Of a DNA stretch of 64,000 nucleotides, positions 2,910-29,566 are shown piece by piece. Positions within the stretch are counted from its first letter, which is position 1, and each line of letters begins with the position of its first letter. A program made the position numbers and the translations under genes. The stretch lies in contig JBAYIQ010000002.1 of assembly GCA_041665545.1 (NCBI GenBank), forward strand, positions 2,369-66,368. The letters run 5' to 3'. Origin of the DNA: Patescibacteria group bacterium (GTDB lineage Bacteria > Patescibacteriota > Patescibacteriia > UBA1558 > GWA2-36-10). The notes below the pieces were generated by a model, which was not told the origin of the DNA, ran no database searches, and saw only the letters and a list, made by a program, of their open reading frames with translations.

Positions 2910-3481
2910 CTATCAATGTCTAATACCCAAAAAGTGAAAGCCACCAAAACTAGGGTTTCCAAACCAAACAACAAAACATTGAATAGCCACCAATTAATAA
3001 TATACCAGTCGTGCCTAGCACTTACTAGTGGTAATAGTATTATACCAGATAATAAAACACTACCATAATAATCAACTGGCGCAAAAGCCAGCCATCTTTT
3101 GTGCCACCAAATATGCTCTTTTTTGAACTTTTTCAAAGGATAGTGGGGATTCAAAACAAACCACAAAAAATCCCACAACACTACAAAAATAAGAAAAAAA
3201 GATAAAGTCTTAAGCCAATGTTCCCAGGATATGTCTAGACCAAATACATAGGGCAAATGAAAAATCAAAAATACAAAAGTGAACATAGTAATATGATAGC
3301 CAGTTGCCTCTCGCCCACTCATAAAATTTACATACAATTTGATATACCACTTATTGGAGTCTGGACGCCAAGTTGGCAAATTTTTGGCCCAGCCATTGGG
3401 ACCCTCAATCTGAATTTCCAAAATTGCTAAAACTGTAGCAAGAATAAAAATATAAATGTTGGTCAAAATTATTTCTGACAT
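2894..3481 (-). CDS. hypothetical polytopic membrane protein
   Basis: 195 aa with several hydrophobic segments and no recognisable catalytic motif. It overlaps the gatC start by 16 nt. Confidence 0.45.
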   Translation of the reverse strand: MSEIILTNIYIFILATVLAILEIQIEGPNGWAKNLPTWRPDSNKWYIKLYVNFMSGREATGYHITMFTFVFLIFHLPYVFGLDISWEHWLKTLSFFLIFVVLWDFLWFVLNPHYPLKKFKKEHIWWHKRWLAFAPVDYYGSVLLSGIILLPLVSARHDWYIINWWLFNVLLFGLETLVLVAFTFWVLDIDSWKKK

Positions 3482-9640: not shown

Positions 9641-9688
9641 AATAGCTTTATTATAACATATTTAAGGGCTTGTGGGCTAATGACCTAC

Positions 9689-9794
9689 TTTTGTTCGAGC
9701 AAGGTTACGCAAAGCGGAACCGCATCGAGAACTCTAGTGCAGTCGAAAATTGCATTTCATGGATTTCTCGACTCGCTCCGCTCGCTCGAAGAAA
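9689..9794. repeat. GIY-YIG-associated nested hairpin repeat (TTCGAGC...TCGAGAA...TTCTCGA...GCTCGAA), 3' flank of the GIY-YIG gene
   Basis: Nested inverted repeats are visible; it is near-identical to the solo copy at 24887-24993. Confidence 0.65.
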
Positions 9795-10070
9795 TTACAT
9801 AATTTTACCCCACTGTCCATTAATGAGTTTTTCTTTTTTGATCCTGCTCCAATCTTTTATTTCTTTTTCTCTATATCTCGCACAATCAAAATCATCATAT
9901 TCCTCAACATAGATCAATTTTTTAATCCCATGCTTAGCTGTAAATTTAGAACCTAAACCACTTAAATGTTGATCAAGCCTTTTACTGACATCATTAGTTA
10001 AACCAACGTAATAAAGATCATCCTTGCAGAGGATAATATAAACAAACCATGATTTTTCTTTTTTAGACAT
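9795..10070 (-). CDS. small GIY-YIG nuclease family protein (UPF0213/YhbQ-like)
   Basis: 91 aa; WFVYIILCKDDLYYVGLTNDVSKRLDQH is a GIY-YIG motif. A second, interrupted copy lies at 28537-28815. Confidence 0.75.
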   Translation of the reverse strand: MSKKEKSWFVYIILCKDDLYYVGLTNDVSKRLDQHLSGLGSKFTAKHGIKKLIYVEEYDDFDCARYREKEIKDWSRIKKEKLINGQWGKIM

Positions 10071-10113
10071 CGCTTTTCTTAATAACGATTAGTATGTTTA
10101 TTTGGGTTCTGCT

Positions 10114-10236
10114 TTTTGTTCGAGCGAAGTCGAGAACTAATATTTTATAAACTTCTCGACTCCCCCTTCGGTGTCGCTCGAAGAAATAAGCTTTTGTTCG
10201 AGTAAGGTTATGCGAATCATAACCGCATCGAGAACT
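10114..10236. repeat. GIY-YIG-associated nested hairpin repeats (5' flank unit 10114-10190 plus partial unit 10192-10236)
   Basis: Outer stem TTCGAGCG/CGCTCGAA and inner stem GTCGAGAA/TTCTCGAC. It is the reverse complement of the repeat upstream of the pseudogene copy (28453-28536). Confidence 0.65.
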
Positions 10237-10244
10237 AACAAATC

Positions 10245-24732: not shown

Positions 24733-24870
24733 AAAAAAACCGCCTACCAATTGTCATTCTGGAGCGAAATCCGCAGGACGAAGCGATAGAATCTACAGTT
24801 TGATTAAAACCCGTAGATTCTATCGGTCGCTCCGCTCCCTCCAGAATGACGACGAAACAGGCGGTTTTTT
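24733..24870. repeat. ~135-nt triple-nested palindromic repeat, copy 2 (A7CCGCCT...AGGCGGT6 outermost stem; GTCATTCTGGAG/CTCCAGAATGAC; GCGATAGAATCTAC/GTAGATTCTATCG)
   Basis: All three stem levels were read directly. It is flanked by an A-run and a T-run and so looks like a bidirectional intrinsic terminator, directly downstream of lemA. Confidence 0.7.
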
Positions 24871-24886
24871 ATTTTTAACAACTCTG

Positions 24887-25026
24887 TTTTTGTTCGAGTA
24901 AGGTTACGCGAAGCGAAACCGCATCGAGAACTATAGTGCAGTCGAAAATTATATTTCATGGACTTCTCGACTCCCTACGGTCGCTCGAAGAAAAAAAGTT
25001 ATTATGGATCGCTCAAAGAAATAAGC
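24887..25026. repeat. solo copy of the GIY-YIG-associated nested hairpin repeat (no nuclease gene)
   Basis: Near-identical to 9689-9794 (TTTTGTTCGAGTAAGGTTACGCGAAGCGAAACCGCATCGAGAACT...TTCTCGACTCC...GCTCGAAGAAA), followed by a short terminal motif resembling the 5'-flank repeat. Confidence 0.65.
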
Positions 25027-25972: not shown

Positions 25973-28450
25973 ATGAGTACTCAACCACAAAATATCTTAA
26001 ATAAATTTACTTACCACTTTAAGCGTGTTTTGATTAACGCCCAGAATTTGGCTTTGGCCAAAAAAAATACTGAAATAGAGCCGGAAGATTTGCTAGTTTC
26101 GCTATTTACTACCAAAGGCGCCTTGGGCTCTGATATTTTGATAAAACATAATGTCAAAATTGATTTAGGCAACCCCAATAATAGTATTGATTTTGAAATT
26201 GTAGCTACTGTGGATCCAAGTCATTTACCACAACCCTCTACCCTAGCCCAACGGGTTATTGAACGAGCGGTTATTGCGGCTTACAAATTTCAGCACAAAT
26301 ATGTGGGCACTGAACACTTGCTCTACGGCTTCATGGACACGGCTGATGAAAATATTGCTGTTATTTTACAAAAGGCCAATATCAATTCCCACAATTTGAA
26401 ACAGCACTTGAATATGGTGCTAAAAAGCAACAACAAATTCAATGATTTAAGCGCCGAAGAAAATACTGTCAAAGACTTGGACGCTCTCTTTGATGAAAAC
26501 GCACCCGAGCCAAATCCCCTGGACATCTACACTATCAATCTGACTAGCGCCGAGGTGCAAAAAGACATTGACCCAGTCATCGGTCGCCAAAAAGAATTGG
26601 ATAGATTGATTGAGATCCTATCACGGCGCACAAAAAATAATCCCGTGCTTTTGGGTGATGCTGGCGTGGGCAAAACCGCCATCATTGAAGGTTTGGCCAA
26701 AAGAATTTTGGAAGGCCAAGTGCCTGATGTTTTGCTAAACAAAACTATCTTGAATTTGGATCTATCTGCCCTGATTGCCGGCACTATGTACAGAGGCGAG
26801 TTTGAAAATCGCCTCAAGCAAGTCATTAATGAAATAAAAAACAACCCCAATATAATTATTTTTATTGACGAATTGCACACCATCATGGGCGCAGGAGCGA
26901 CTGCTGGCTCACTGGACGCGGCCAATATCTTGAAGCCGGCTCTGGCCAGGGGCTACTTGCGCTGTATTGGTGCCACTACTTTTGAGGAATACAAAAAACA
27001 CATTGAAACTGACCGCGCTTTGGAAAGACGCTTTCAGTCTGTAGTCATCAATGAATCCAGTGAAAAAGAAACCTTGGAAATTCTCAAGGGTTTGAAAAAA
27101 AATTACGAAAAATTCCACCAAGTCAACATCAAAGACGAGGCCTTGGAGGCGGCTGTACTTTTGAGCAAACGATTTTTGCCAGACAAAAAACTACCAGACA
27201 AGGCCATTGATTTGATTGACGAAGCTTCGGCTCGACTCAAGGTCAGGCAAACCAAACGCAGTCTAGCTAAAGAAATCAGAAAACTAGAAGAACAAGCGCA
27301 AAATTGCCAAAACAATAAACGCCAAGCTATTTTGTCTGAAGATTATTTGGACGCTCTCAAATACCGCGATGAAGAAGAAGTGATATTAACCCAATTGGTC
27401 GGCCTACAAGCCCAAGAAGACAAACAAAAACAATCTAGTCTTGGCGAAATCACAAGCATTGATATTGCCGAAATAATTTCGGAAATGAGCCAAGTACCTG
27501 TAGGCGATCTAACAGCCACTGATCAGCAAAACCTCATCCAATTGGAAGAAAAAATTGGTCGCTATGTTTTTGGTCAAGAAAATGCTCTACAAACCATTGC
27601 TCAAACCATCCGCCAAGCCAAAGCGGGCTTAACTGACAAAAACAAGCCATTGGCTTCATTTATGTTTTTGGGACCATCCGGAGTCGGTAAAACCGAAACT
27701 GCTAAGCAATTAGCCAATTTTGTTTTTGGTGGCAAACATAATTTATTGCGCATTGACATGTCAGAGTTTTCTGAAAGCTTCAATATTTCCAAATTGATTG
27801 GCTCTCCGGCTGGCTATGTGGGCTATCGCGAAGGCAATAAATTGACTGACACCATAAAAAATAAACCCTACACTTTAATATTGTTTGATGAAATTGAAAA
27901 AGCTCACGCTGATATTTTTAATCTGTTATTACCGATCTTAGAGGAGGGCGAATTGACTGATGCTACTGGTCGGACCATAAATTTCCGCAATTGTGTTATT
28001 ATCATGACCTCCAACATTGGCCTGCCAGAATTCAATCACGAAGCAATCATGGGCTTTGATCTTGGTAATGAAAACAACAGCCAGTTCAAACATGTGTCCA
28101 ACAAAGTATTGAGCAGTTTGAGCAAACATTTTCCCCCGGAGTTTATCAACCGCTTAAATGGGGCCGTAGTTTTTGACCCCATCAGCAAAGAAGCGGCCAA
28201 CAAAATAATCAAACAAGAAATCAAACAATTGTCCCAAACCTTGTCTGACCAGGATATACGGCTGACTATACCAGTTAGCGTCACTAATAAATTGCTGACT
28301 ATGGCGCCAGAGTACATTCAGACTGGCGCTCGTGGCTTGAAAAAAATAGTTGATCAGGAATTAGCCAATCCTATAGCTAAAATATTGCTAAGTAAAAAAA
28401 CCAAAAATATCCGCGCCAGCTTGATAAAAGAAAAAATAGTTTTGAAATAA
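25973..28450 (+). CDS. Clp-family AAA+ chaperone, ClpC/ClpB-like (two ATPase domains)
   Basis: 825 aa with an N-terminal Clp repeat region, two Walker A sites (GDAGVGKTAI, GPSGVGKTETA) and a short middle region, so more ClpC-like than ClpB-like. Confidence 0.85.
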   Translation: MSTQPQNILNKFTYHFKRVLINAQNLALAKKNTEIEPEDLLVSLFTTKGALGSDILIKHNVKIDLGNPNNSIDFEIVATVDPSHLPQPSTLAQRVIERAVIAAYKFQHKYVGTEHLLYGFMDTADENIAVILQKANINSHNLKQHLNMVLKSNNKFNDLSAEENTVKDLDALFDENAPEPNPLDIYTINLTSAEVQKDIDPVIGRQKELDRLIEILSRRTKNNPVLLGDAGVGKTAIIEGLAKRILEGQVPDVLLNKTILNLDLSALIAGTMYRGEFENRLKQVINEIKNNPNIIIFIDELHTIMGAGATAGSLDAANILKPALARGYLRCIGATTFEEYKKHIETDRALERRFQSVVINESSEKETLEILKGLKKNYEKFHQVNIKDEALEAAVLLSKRFLPDKKLPDKAIDLIDEASARLKVRQTKRSLAKEIRKLEEQAQNCQNNKRQAILSEDYLDALKYRDEEEVILTQLVGLQAQEDKQKQSSLGEITSIDIAEIISEMSQVPVGDLTATDQQNLIQLEEKIGRYVFGQENALQTIAQTIRQAKAGLTDKNKPLASFMFLGPSGVGKTETAKQLANFVFGGKHNLLRIDMSEFSESFNISKLIGSPAGYVGYREGNKLTDTIKNKPYTLILFDEIEKAHADIFNLLLPILEEGELTDATGRTINFRNCVIIMTSNIGLPEFNHEAIMGFDLGNENNSQFKHVSNKVLSSLSKHFPPEFINRLNGAVVFDPISKEAANKIIKQEIKQLSQTLSDQDIRLTIPVSVTNKLLTMAPEYIQTGARGLKKIVDQELANPIAKILLSKKTKNIRASLIKEKIVLK

Positions 28451-28452
28451 TT

Positions 28453-28536
28453 TTTCTTCGAGCGATCCCGAGCAAAGCCGAGGGAGAGTCGAGAAGTTCT
28501 CGACTGCGCTCGAACAAATATTATATAAGAAAAGCG
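28453..28536. repeat. GIY-YIG-associated nested hairpin repeat (upstream of pseudogene copy)
   Basis: TTTCTTCGAGCGA...GAGTCGAGAAGTTCTCGACTG CGCTCGAACAAA...TAAGAAAAGCG-ATG, with outer and inner palindromes. Confidence 0.65.
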
Positions 28537-28815
28537 ATGATTCCCGTTAGAAATTCCCAATGGTTTGTTTATATTATCCTGTGCAAGGATGATCTTTATT
28601 ATGTTGGCCTAACCAATGACATTAGTAAGAGATTTGATCAACACTTGAGTGGCCTGGGATCAAAATTTACCGCTAAACACGGGGTGAAAGAGTTAGTTTA
28701 TGTGGAGTAATATGATGATTTTGATTGTGCGAGATATAGAGAAAAAGAAATAAAAGATTGGAGCAGGATCAAAAAAGAAAAACTCATTAATGGGCAGTGG
28801 GGTAAAATTATGTAA
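28537..28815 (+). pseudogene. GIY-YIG nuclease family gene interrupted by an in-frame TAA (codon 58; GAA in the intact paralog)
   Basis: Translation MIPVRNSQWFVYIILCKDDLYYVGLTNDISKRFDQHLSGLGSKFTAKHGVKELVYVE*YDDFDCARYREKEIKDWSRIKKEKLINGQWGKIM is ~90% identical to the 9795-10070 product apart from the stop. Confidence 0.7.
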
Positions 28816-28900
28816 TTTCTTCGAGCGACCATGGGGAGTCGAGAAGTTAATGAAATACTAGTTCTCGACTGCGCTCGAACAAATATTATTTAAGAAAACA
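28816..28900. repeat. GIY-YIG-associated nested hairpin repeat (second copy, immediately upstream of the comF-like gene)
   Basis: Same architecture as 28453-28536. Both copies end in ...TAAGAAAA[GCG/CA]ATGATTCC, so the repeat plus ~20 nt of the gene 5' end are duplicated. Confidence 0.65.
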
Positions 28901-29566
28901 ATGATTCCTTTTAGCCAATATCTAAATAATTTTTTAGATTATATATTCCCTCAATTTTGTTTGGGCTGTAAGCAAGAAGGAAATATATTTTGTGATTCTT
29001 GTCTAAACAAATTAGAATTACTACCCGACAACCAGAAACCCTGGCCTGAGGAAAATTTTTTGTTTGATGAGTGCCATATTTGCCTTGATTATCACGATCC
29101 AGTTGTCAAAAAATTAATTAAAAAATATAAATATGGCTATTTTGACAACTTGGCCAATCCAATTGCCGCGGTCTATATCAAAAAAATAAACAATTTAAAT
29201 TTAAATAATGCTTTTATTATCTGCAATGTTCCTCTGCACAAACGCAAAAAGAAAAAACGTGGCTTTGACCAAACCGAATTAATTGCCAAAAAAATTAGTG
29301 CTAATACTCAAATCCCCTATTTTGATTTATTAAACCGCCAGCGTTTCACCAAAGCACAAGCCGAGCTTGATAAAGAGCAACGACAAAAAAATATGTCGCA
29401 AGCTTTTGTGATTAACAAAAAAATTAACTCACTGGAGTTAATTAATCACCCTGTATTATTGATTGACGATATTGCCACCACTGGCACCACTCTGAATGAG
29501 GCCTCTCGTGCCCTCCAACAAGCTGGTTTTAAACAAATTATTTGCCTAGCCTTAGCTAAAAACTAA
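28901..29566 (+). CDS. comFC: ComF-family protein (phosphoribosyltransferase-domain competence protein)
   Basis: 221 aa with an N-terminal Zn-finger (CLGCKQEGNIFCDSC) and a C-terminal PRTase motif (VLLIDDIATTGTTL). Confidence 0.75.
   Translation: MIPFSQYLNNFLDYIFPQFCLGCKQEGNIFCDSCLNKLELLPDNQKPWPEENFLFDECHICLDYHDPVVKKLIKKYKYGYFDNLANPIAAVYIKKINNLNLNNAFIICNVPLHKRKKKKRGFDQTELIAKKISANTQIPYFDLLNRQRFTKAQAELDKEQRQKNMSQAFVINKKINSLELINHPVLLIDDIATTGTTLNEASRALQQAGFKQIICLALAKN

Follow-up and report, generated by a model that had tools for sequence, protein, structure and literature searches.

A GIY-YIG nuclease pseudogene fused to a duplicated comF start, and the hairpin family that accompanies it, in a Patescibacteria group bacterium

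The junction between clpC and comF was analyzed in a 64-kb stretch of Patescibacteria DNA (64,000 nucleotides (nt) of contig JBAYIQ010000002.1; "the window" below). Comparison with relatives identifies positions 28453-28920 as a lineage-specific insert at this junction. It carries a GIY-YIG nuclease pseudogene that begins with comF codons, together with two hairpins that lack an open reading frame (ORF). The working comF, as judged from the alignments, now uses a downstream copy of its own start and stays intact. We consider the best overall explanation, at a probability of about 0.7, to be that a nuclease-encoding element was fused onto the start of comF, that this start was duplicated, that the hairpins are borne by the element and that the element is spread by recombination. 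The features that carry this reading are:

28453-28518, plus strand: ORF-less hairpin, copy 1 (nhmmer E 3e-17; DNA fold -17.6 kcal/mol, z -3.9; almost no loop)
28454-28465, 28486-28496, 28496-28505 and 28507-28518, plus strand: arms A TTCTTCGAGCGA, B GAGTCGAGAAG, C GTTCTCGACT and D CGCTCGAACAAA of copy 1
28495-28560, plus strand: left direct repeat, composed of the hairpin right half, the 7-nt junction TATTATA, the leader TAAGAAAAGCG (28526-28536) and comF codons 1-8, ATGATTCCCGTTAGAAATTCCCAA (28537-28560)
28537-28815, plus strand: GIY-YIG pseudogene, 92 codons if read through; comF codons 1-8 fused in frame to a UPF0213/Slx1-like ORF, with a stop at codon 58
28561-28707, plus strand: old 5′ half of the nuclease ORF (W9-E57), 80% identical to the paralog at the DNA level, differences mostly synonymous
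28708-28710, plus strand: in-frame TAA at codon 58, GAA in the paralog and orthologs, at the edge of the homogenised tract
28711-28828, plus strand: homogenised tract (3′ 35 codons, stop and first 13 nt of the next hairpin), with one difference (G28794) from 9782-9899 on the minus strand
28816-28883, plus strand: ORF-less hairpin, copy 2 (nhmmer E 4e-23; z -6.0)
28817-28828, 28836-28846, 28861-28870 and 28872-28883, plus strand: arms A, B, C and D of copy 2
28860-28918, plus strand: right direct repeat, composed of the hairpin right half, the junction, the leader copy TTAAGAAAACA (28890-28900) and codons 1-6 of the working comF (MIPFSQ)
28901-29566, plus strand: intact comF (ComFC-like, 221 amino acids (aa)), aligned end to end (1-221) with orthologs named ComFC in the source databases
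9795-10070, minus strand: intact paralog of the nuclease, 91 aa, between a pilin-like gene and a prepilin peptidase gene

Ten comF loci of relatives were inspected, among them L014, L015, L107, L105, L106, L108 and L016. In L014, L015 and L107, whose ComF is 86-88% identical to that of the window, the TAA of clpC is followed by a 33-nt spacer, TTTAAAYACACTAATCGTTACTAAGAAAAGCG, and directly by comF, and neither a hairpin nor a GIY-YIG gene is present at this site. Compared with L015, 457 bases of the window (28454-28910) stand in place of 39 nt. The short spacer of the three close relatives, a single leader in each, thus indicates that the window segment is an insertion tied to the duplicated 5′ end of comF. 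A preliminary description of this DNA had proposed as much; the two versions it offered, target duplication and recombination at the comF 5′ end, are not distinguishable from each other. Identity of the clpC 3′ end is 87% with L014/L015 vs ~71% with relatives further away. The gene is thus native as far as its stop codon, and a joint import of its 3′ end with the segment was rejected.

Direct repeats of 59-66 nt (28495-28560 and 28860-28918) flank the nuclease core; they are identical at 55 of 59 aligned bases, with gaps of 1 and 6 nt, and both run on into TAAGAAAA(GCG/CA)ATGATTCC, as had been noticed before. The pseudogene starts with MIPVRNSQ and then continues with nuclease sequence (WFVYII). 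ComF orthologs of slightly more distant relatives start with MIPVRNSP, MIPARNSQ or MIPVKNSP. All 31 nt of 28526-28556 agree with the leader and start of comF in L105, and the 24 comF-type coding bases of the pseudogene are 22/24 identical to L106 and L108. The comF-like N-terminus, already recognized as such in the preliminary description, and the 31-nt match together indicate an in-frame fusion of the comF translation start to a nuclease ORF. The same description had a "promoter-leader" and the first ~20 nt of comF duplicated. The duplication is there, but its comF-derived part amounts to 24 nt (eight codons) within a longer repeat, and no sigma-70-like promoter was detected in the duplicated leader. 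No intrinsic terminator was found at the hairpins. Since the gap between clpC and comF is only 33 nt in relatives, comF is probably co-transcribed with clpC.

The ComF N-terminus is 11 codons shorter in the window, L014, L015 and L107 (221 aa) than in L105, L106 and L108 (230-232 aa), and the codons missing from the short type are those that follow the nuclease fusion point in the pseudogene. In the comF product, a Pribosyltran domain (PF00156, 2.4e-9) was detected, and a DZR_2 zinc ribbon scored weakly (19.9 bits vs a cut-off of 27).

Read through its stop, the pseudogene is translated as MIPVRNSQWFVY...YVE*YDDFD...GKIM. By tblastn, a sole paralog was located in the window (9798-10061, minus strand); over residues 5-92 the two are 88.6% identical, close to the ~90% estimated earlier. 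Both the intact copy (65.2 bits, 6.8e-18) and the 57-aa fragment (47.3 bits, 2.6e-12) score above the curated cut-off of the Pfam GIY-YIG model (PF01541, 22.6 bits). The intact paralog at 9795-10070 retains the whole catalytic set of two Tyr, Arg and Glu. In the pseudogene this set is incomplete: the TAA removes the segment with the invariant active-site Arg-Glu (R67 and E68 in the paralog), so that the product is truncated before the catalytic Glu, and there is no in-frame restart downstream. Neither 14 close homologs nor the ten comF loci included an intact ortholog of the copy at comF, whose protein would begin MIPVRNSQW...

The TAA for GAA at codon 58, first reported in the preliminary description, is present in two long assemblies that are 100% identical to the window across the locus (L021 from ENA and L023 from NCBI). 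It also occurs in Logan contig L024 of another run (SRR6484324), which ends 30 nt past T28708, while contig L022 of a further run (SRR18595301) begins 30 nt ahead of the first unique base, 28829. Breaks 30 nt from the repeat edges are the behaviour expected at a true repeat of an assembly with k = 31, which we take to be the Logan setting. Since the paralog has A at the position of G28794, the tract can be assigned to the comF locus. The stop codon is thus found in independent assembly contigs, evidence of assembly or unitig level.

The two halves of the pseudogene have diverged from the intact copy to very different extents. Codons 8-56 (paralog numbering) are identical at 118 of 147 positions (80%), with a proportion of synonymous differences (pS) of 0.79 and of nonsynonymous differences (pN) of 0.047; codons 57-92, the TAA included, are identical at 106 of 108 positions (98%; pS 0.065, pN 0). 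The contrast is significant (Fisher p = 4e-6). The 5′ half is as distant from the resident paralog as is the ortholog in L012. From these substitution patterns, the comF-locus copy is judged to be an old paralog that was functional, under purifying selection, for most of its history, and its 3′ half to have been recently homogenised with the intact copy at 9795-10070. With its L001 ortholog the intact copy shares 87% identity in each half; it was therefore probably the donor of the 3′ tract, although this is a weak inference. The G-to-T change that makes the TAA is the first base of the homogenised region. Of the decay suggested earlier for the nuclease gene, the pseudogene state is borne out, but a single lesion is present, in a gene with a 5′ half under purifying selection and a recently homogenised 3′ half. 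An internal CTCGAAGAA (the left-arm complement, encoded by the "YLEE" codons) was considered as the cause of the conversion boundary and rejected: it occurs in ~5/50 ORFs and is a coding by-product.

The origin of the hairpins was traced using 80 metagenomic loci that encode relatives of the nuclease. The density of four core arm motifs in these loci is 8.2 per kb up to 400 nt from the gene and 0.67 per kb elsewhere. Two inner-arm motifs were scored at loci with both flanks, TCGAGAA just 5′ of the start codon and TTCTCGA just 3′ of the stop codon (background 0.1-0.2 per kb). Among the 53 such loci at 50-67% protein identity, both inner arms (left before the start, right after the stop) are present in 33, one side in 13 and neither in 7; none of the 24 loci below 50% identity has both, two have one side and 22 have neither. 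The canonical form is TATTCTTCGAG(CG)..(A)GTCGAGAAG - ATG..ORF..stop - GTTCTCGAC..(G)CTCGAACAATA, that is, two nested inverted repeats 266-330 nt apart, as a repeat search confirmed. In most canonical loci, the left inner arm (GAGAAG) ends 3-16 nt before the start codon. The window hairpins are canonical arms joined by a short loop and lacking the ORF; the loop still resembles ATG AAA TAC TAG, and in copy 2 the loop TTAATGAAATACTA looks like such a start-and-stop remnant. The two flanking copies that the preliminary description had pointed out, 28453-28518 and 28816-28883, are real, but a reading of them as part of the leader of comF did not survive: the comF loci of the close relatives are without them, and they consist of arms of the nuclease element family. 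By this comparison, the hairpins belong to the nuclease element rather than to comF.

The genomic contexts are diverse: the 101 ORFs that neighbour the related genes form 83 clusters. Tandem arrays of half-arms, either at least four copies of a 32-nt left arm or 47-nt right-arm units, lie beside the nuclease gene in L065 (400-530), L037 (1-115) and L030 (2180-2440 and 2790-3090). A second, independent pseudogene of the family is the frameshifted relative at 2501-2757 of L080/L081, whose neighbourhood is that of the intact copies in L052/L053. The arm cores are invariant, their C:C and G:G mismatches are conserved and there is almost no compensatory change. Arm covariation, considered as proof of pairing, is uninformative with cores that do not vary, and the invariant arms are explained by a protein that recognises their sequence no less well than by selection for pairing.

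In the window itself, nhmmer searches across all 64 kb found five full hairpins (E 3e-17 to 4e-23), of which four flank the GIY-YIG genes and one is solo upstream of htpX. The short forms fold with z = -3.9 to -6.0, and the 18-mer TTCTCGACTGCGCTCGAA has three matches in the window vs none in the 100 shuffles. The hairpins matched no Rfam family, either at gathering thresholds in the whole window or at E<=10 around both GIY-YIG loci. Those outside the comF locus, with the leader that precedes the intact paralog, are:

9687-9794, minus strand: composite 108-nt hairpin that begins right after the stop codon of the intact paralog
10071-10103, minus strand: copy of the comF leader (…ACTAATCGTTATTAAGAAAAGCG) before the intact paralog
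10113-10239, minus strand: hairpin copy (10113-10188) and an additional module of the right arm (10190-10239), both upstream of the intact paralog
24886-24995, minus strand: solo composite hairpin in the lemA-htpX gap, accompanied at 25007-25023 by a left-arm fragment

The solo hairpin sits between the lemA terminator and the htpX promoter, where L015 has ~25 unrelated bases. Its absence from L015 indicates that ORF-less hairpins come and go independently of the nuclease gene.

The intact paralog has orthologs in the same pilin/prepilin peptidase context in L001 (92% identical) and L012 (82%). Among 20 fetched loci, a 23-mer, ACTAATCGTTAYTAAGAAAAGCG, occurs only upstream of these GIY-YIG genes and of comF, and at both places on one contig, that of L001 and L015. 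Within this genome, the 33-nt leaders of the pilin-locus nuclease gene (L001 2968-3000) and of comF (L015 3953-3985) are nearly identical, being either captured or kept alike by gene conversion. In the window, TAAGAAAAGCGATG occurs only at the two GIY-YIG genes. It was therefore rejected as a general start signal of the genome, other genes having plain A/T-rich leaders. A leader that is shared, and that is not a general start signal, suggests that the nuclease lineage acquired the comF start region before these genomes diverged. The leaders of the 50 longest ORFs of the window are A/T-rich, and nothing resembling a Shine-Dalgarno motif is seen in them. DNA-uptake genes are the neighbours of both nuclease copies: a type IV pilus cluster (7-13 kb) in one case, comF in the other.

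GIY-YIG is the only Pfam domain of the intact protein, which is a stand-alone domain of ~90 aa with conserved Y, Y-G, R, H and E positions. The nearest solved structures are UPF0213 proteins matched over nearly the whole length (1zg2, E 1.1e-16; 1ywl, E 4.6e-12), while the group I intron endonuclease model TIGR01453 scores 20 bits vs a cut-off of 56. On these matches, the protein is classed as a minimal UPF0213/Slx1-like nuclease, a group to which E. coli YhbQ presumably also belongs. In a survey of the superfamily (PMC1564403), the 1zg2/1ywl group is treated as the bacterial branch of the Slx1 family and the minimal form of the fold. By kinship to eukaryotic Slx1 (PMC1564403), such a protein may cleave branched or hairpin DNA in a structure-specific manner.

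Several other explanations of the locus were weighed. It is hardly credible that the TAA reflects an error of sequencing or consensus calling, or that the 98%-identical 3′ half was joined chimerically with the paralog during assembly, so that the gene would really be intact. A near-exact repeat is the kind of place where assemblers err, and the support comes from assemblies and not from reads; yet two long assemblies and the SRR6484324 unitig agree on the TAA, the contig breaks fall exactly k-1 from the repeat edges (with k = 31 presumed), the longest exact repeat (85 nt) is below the k = 141 suggested by the ENA contig name, and G28794 separates the comF locus from the paralog. We also find it very improbable that two hairpins were inserted independently and site-specifically just upstream of TAAGAAAAGCG-type leaders, with no duplication. 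The clpC-comF spacer does bear hairpin modules in other lineages (L016 and L106), and the internal parts of the two hairpins differ by indels. However, an identical run of 30 nt, AGTTCTCGACTGCGCTCGAACAAATATTAT, is present in both copies, their similarity extends through the leader into coding sequence, and in L016 and L106 the junction between hairpin and leader is elsewhere, 25-36 nt upstream.

The two remaining alternatives concern the age of the insert and the nature of the hairpins. The insertion could be ancient, made at the comF start in a subclade ancestor with a 232-aa ComF and later lost elsewhere, so that only the window lineage kept the gene; the 11-codon shortening of ComF in the window, L014, L015 and L107 would then be a scar, and the loss would have occurred by recombination between the flanking repeats. 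Such a history would account for the fused MIPVRNSQ being of the long type while the window's own comF is of the short type, for 5′ halves of the paralogs that are saturated at synonymous sites and as far apart as the L012 ortholog, and for a comF leader already attached to the pilin-locus copies of the window, L001 and L012, which places the contact with comF before the split of these genomes. We nevertheless regard it as rather unlikely: recombination between the present repeats would leave a hairpin and L014, L015 and L107 have none, three independent losses or one in a common ancestor would be needed, and the left repeat is still 31/31 identical to the comF start of a distant relative. Alternatively, the hairpins may be RNA devices (5′-3′ pairing of the nuclease mRNA, occlusion of the ribosome-binding site, processing or stability) and not ends of mobile DNA, the ORF-less ones being relics of ORFs that decayed in place. 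The position of the inner left arm GAGAAG 3-16 nt before the start in most canonical loci, a few T:G combinations between arms and the ATG...TAG remnants kept in the hairpin loops would agree with this. It is improbable, since the arm cores are invariant with compensatory change almost nil, solo hairpins occupy sites that are empty in a close relative, half-arms are tandemly amplified, and the window ORFs are not enclosed by arms, yet the intact copy is conserved.

We therefore return to an element that is fused onto the comF start and spread by recombination. Since a hydrolytic 90-aa nuclease cannot itself transpose DNA, a homing-like, recombination-dependent element is favoured. The nuclease, as a relative of Slx1, would cut at or near an extruded palindrome, and the break would be repaired from another copy, homology being provided by the conserved arms or by captured gene starts. 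Break-induced recombination between dispersed copies would leave the traces listed above: hairpins devoid of an ORF, arms in amplified arrays, a tract of conversion with its end inside an arm, target genes with a duplicated 5′ end, and a pattern of gain and decay. Only insertions with a restored host gene would persist under selection. For the direct repeats at comF two origins are conceivable: integration, by a single crossover, of a circular or ectopic copy in which the comF start was already present, or fill-in after staggered breaks. In the mRNA, the left inner arm could pair with the right arm and thus limit translation.

More tentatively, and at less than even odds, these observations would define an undescribed class of selfish elements that is widespread in Patescibacteria: a Slx1/UPF0213-type GIY-YIG ORF set in a two-part palindrome, whose nuclease recognises the extruded hairpin, while host recombination copies or deletes the ORF, seeds ORF-less hairpins and captures host 5′ ends (of comF here and of tRNA-Ser for a sister subfamily). 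If true, this would be a GIY-YIG counterpart of the REPIN-RAYT partnership and the first proposed biological role for a bacterial UPF0213 subfamily. A single pseudogene is ordinary; it is the element family that looks new. A palindrome-embedded UPF0213/GIY-YIG element was not found described in the literature searched, although such absence is no proof of novelty. With the three insertion-free alleles, the locus offers a natural experiment in which a nuclease gene lands on the start of an essential-looking competence gene without killing it, since the insert takes the old translation start and leaves a duplicate for comF. The architecture, an ORF in a palindrome with ORF-less hairpins elsewhere, also provides a testable hypothesis for what UPF0213/Slx1-like proteins cut. 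The adjacency to DNA-uptake genes would suit spread by recombination with incoming DNA, but it is an observation only.

Several points weigh against the favoured explanation of an element that is fused onto comF and spread by recombination. The mechanism of mobility is one that we infer, rather than one observed as cleavage or movement. In the window, each GIY-YIG ORF has a complete hairpin on either side instead of being enclosed by one; the model does not predict this layout in detail, although similar variants occur in L040 and L003. Pairing of the arms is putative, and recognition could be purely sequence-specific on duplex DNA. Five hairpins per 64 kb and a syntenic intact copy (82-100% identical proteins) indicate that mobility is slow at best. 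The comF codons in the fusion are those of the long type (232 aa), whereas comF of the window and of its closest relatives is short (221 aa), so the fusion either predates the shortening of ComF or was imported from another lineage. The support for the TAA is of unitig level.

The element resembles several known systems and differs from each in some respects. Free-standing GIY-YIG homing endonuclease genes, such as those of the T4 Seg proteins and I-TevI, go through a cycle of gain, decay and loss. Like them, the window gene is small and selfish, codes for a nuclease and is lodged between conserved genes or at their starts; it is patchily present in close relatives, with conversion tracts and inactivation by stop codon or frameshift. 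Presence/absence polymorphism and decay of the homing type are seen in the empty sites of relatives, in the stop codon here and in the L080/L081 frameshift. Unlike them, the window family has no DNA-binding domain and belongs to the Slx1-like and not the I-TevI/UvrC branch, and the window element has palindromic arms and a duplicated target 5′ end. Repetitive extragenic palindromic (REP) sequences and REPINs partner RAYT genes, whose products are HUH tyrosine enzymes. The similarity lies in a single-domain nuclease gene flanked by short palindromes that also occur solo in intergenic DNA, with synteny in relatives; the differences are a GIY-YIG instead of an HUH enzyme, only five repeats per 64 kb and, in the canonical form, an ORF inside the palindrome.

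With insertion sequences (IS) and miniature inverted-repeat transposable elements (MITE), the family shares in part the form of an ORF bounded by ~27-nt inverted repeats, with ORF-less copies built of both ends. Bounding repeats of this kind are present in 33/53 related loci, while both window ORFs lie between complete hairpins instead. No known class of transposase is represented, and a GIY-YIG domain, being hydrolytic, is unable to join strands. Target-site duplications that are short and constant in length are absent as well: the repeat that flanks the nuclease core in the window measures 59-66 nt and contains sequence of the element. Mismatches are conserved within the ends. Phages and islands that integrate into tRNA genes bring a replacement end of the target gene. 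Here too the target end is present twice and the gene, comF, is intact; however, it is the 5′ and not the 3′ end that is duplicated, there is no integrase and the insert is only ~0.4 kb. A parallel is provided by a GIY-YIG gene of another subfamily (85-101 aa) located just downstream of comF in L105 (3775-4115) and L108 (930-1370), where the gene is bordered by repeats of the opening 14 nt of tRNA-Ser(GCT) with upstream bases, present twice in L105 and three times in L108; L106 (3775-3892) has kept the extra tRNA-Ser copy with the gene absent. The tRNA-Ser case bears the same signature of a duplicated gene start and supports its generality. UPF0213/Slx1-like proteins (BH0048 = 1zg2, EF2693 = 1ywl) share the minimal ~90-aa domain with no extra domain. 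UPF0213 proteins are described as vertically inherited and of unknown role (PMC1564403), whereas the window subfamily is enclosed by palindromes, occurs in diverse contexts and comes with ORF-less hairpins and pseudogenes.

Elsewhere, the clpC-comF spacers of L016 (977-1045) and L106 (2850-2965) contain "inside-out" hairpin modules, with the right arm before the left, and no nuclease gene; this site seems to have been occupied repeatedly. Another Parcubacteria lineage (L003-L011, ~3001-3390) has P0007, a 73%-identical nuclease gene situated some hundreds of bases downstream of clpC; an ORF-less hairpin follows this gene rather than enclosing it, and the same protein is encoded on at least 24 contigs.

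The local gene order in the window is htpX, clpC (25973-28450), the pseudogene insert, comF (28901-29566) and a CYTH gene. Downstream of lemA, at 24739-24870, there is a near-perfect inverted repeat of ~130 nt (AAAAAAACCGCCTACC...GGCGGTTTTTT) that is conserved in L015 and looks like an oversized terminator or another palindromic element.

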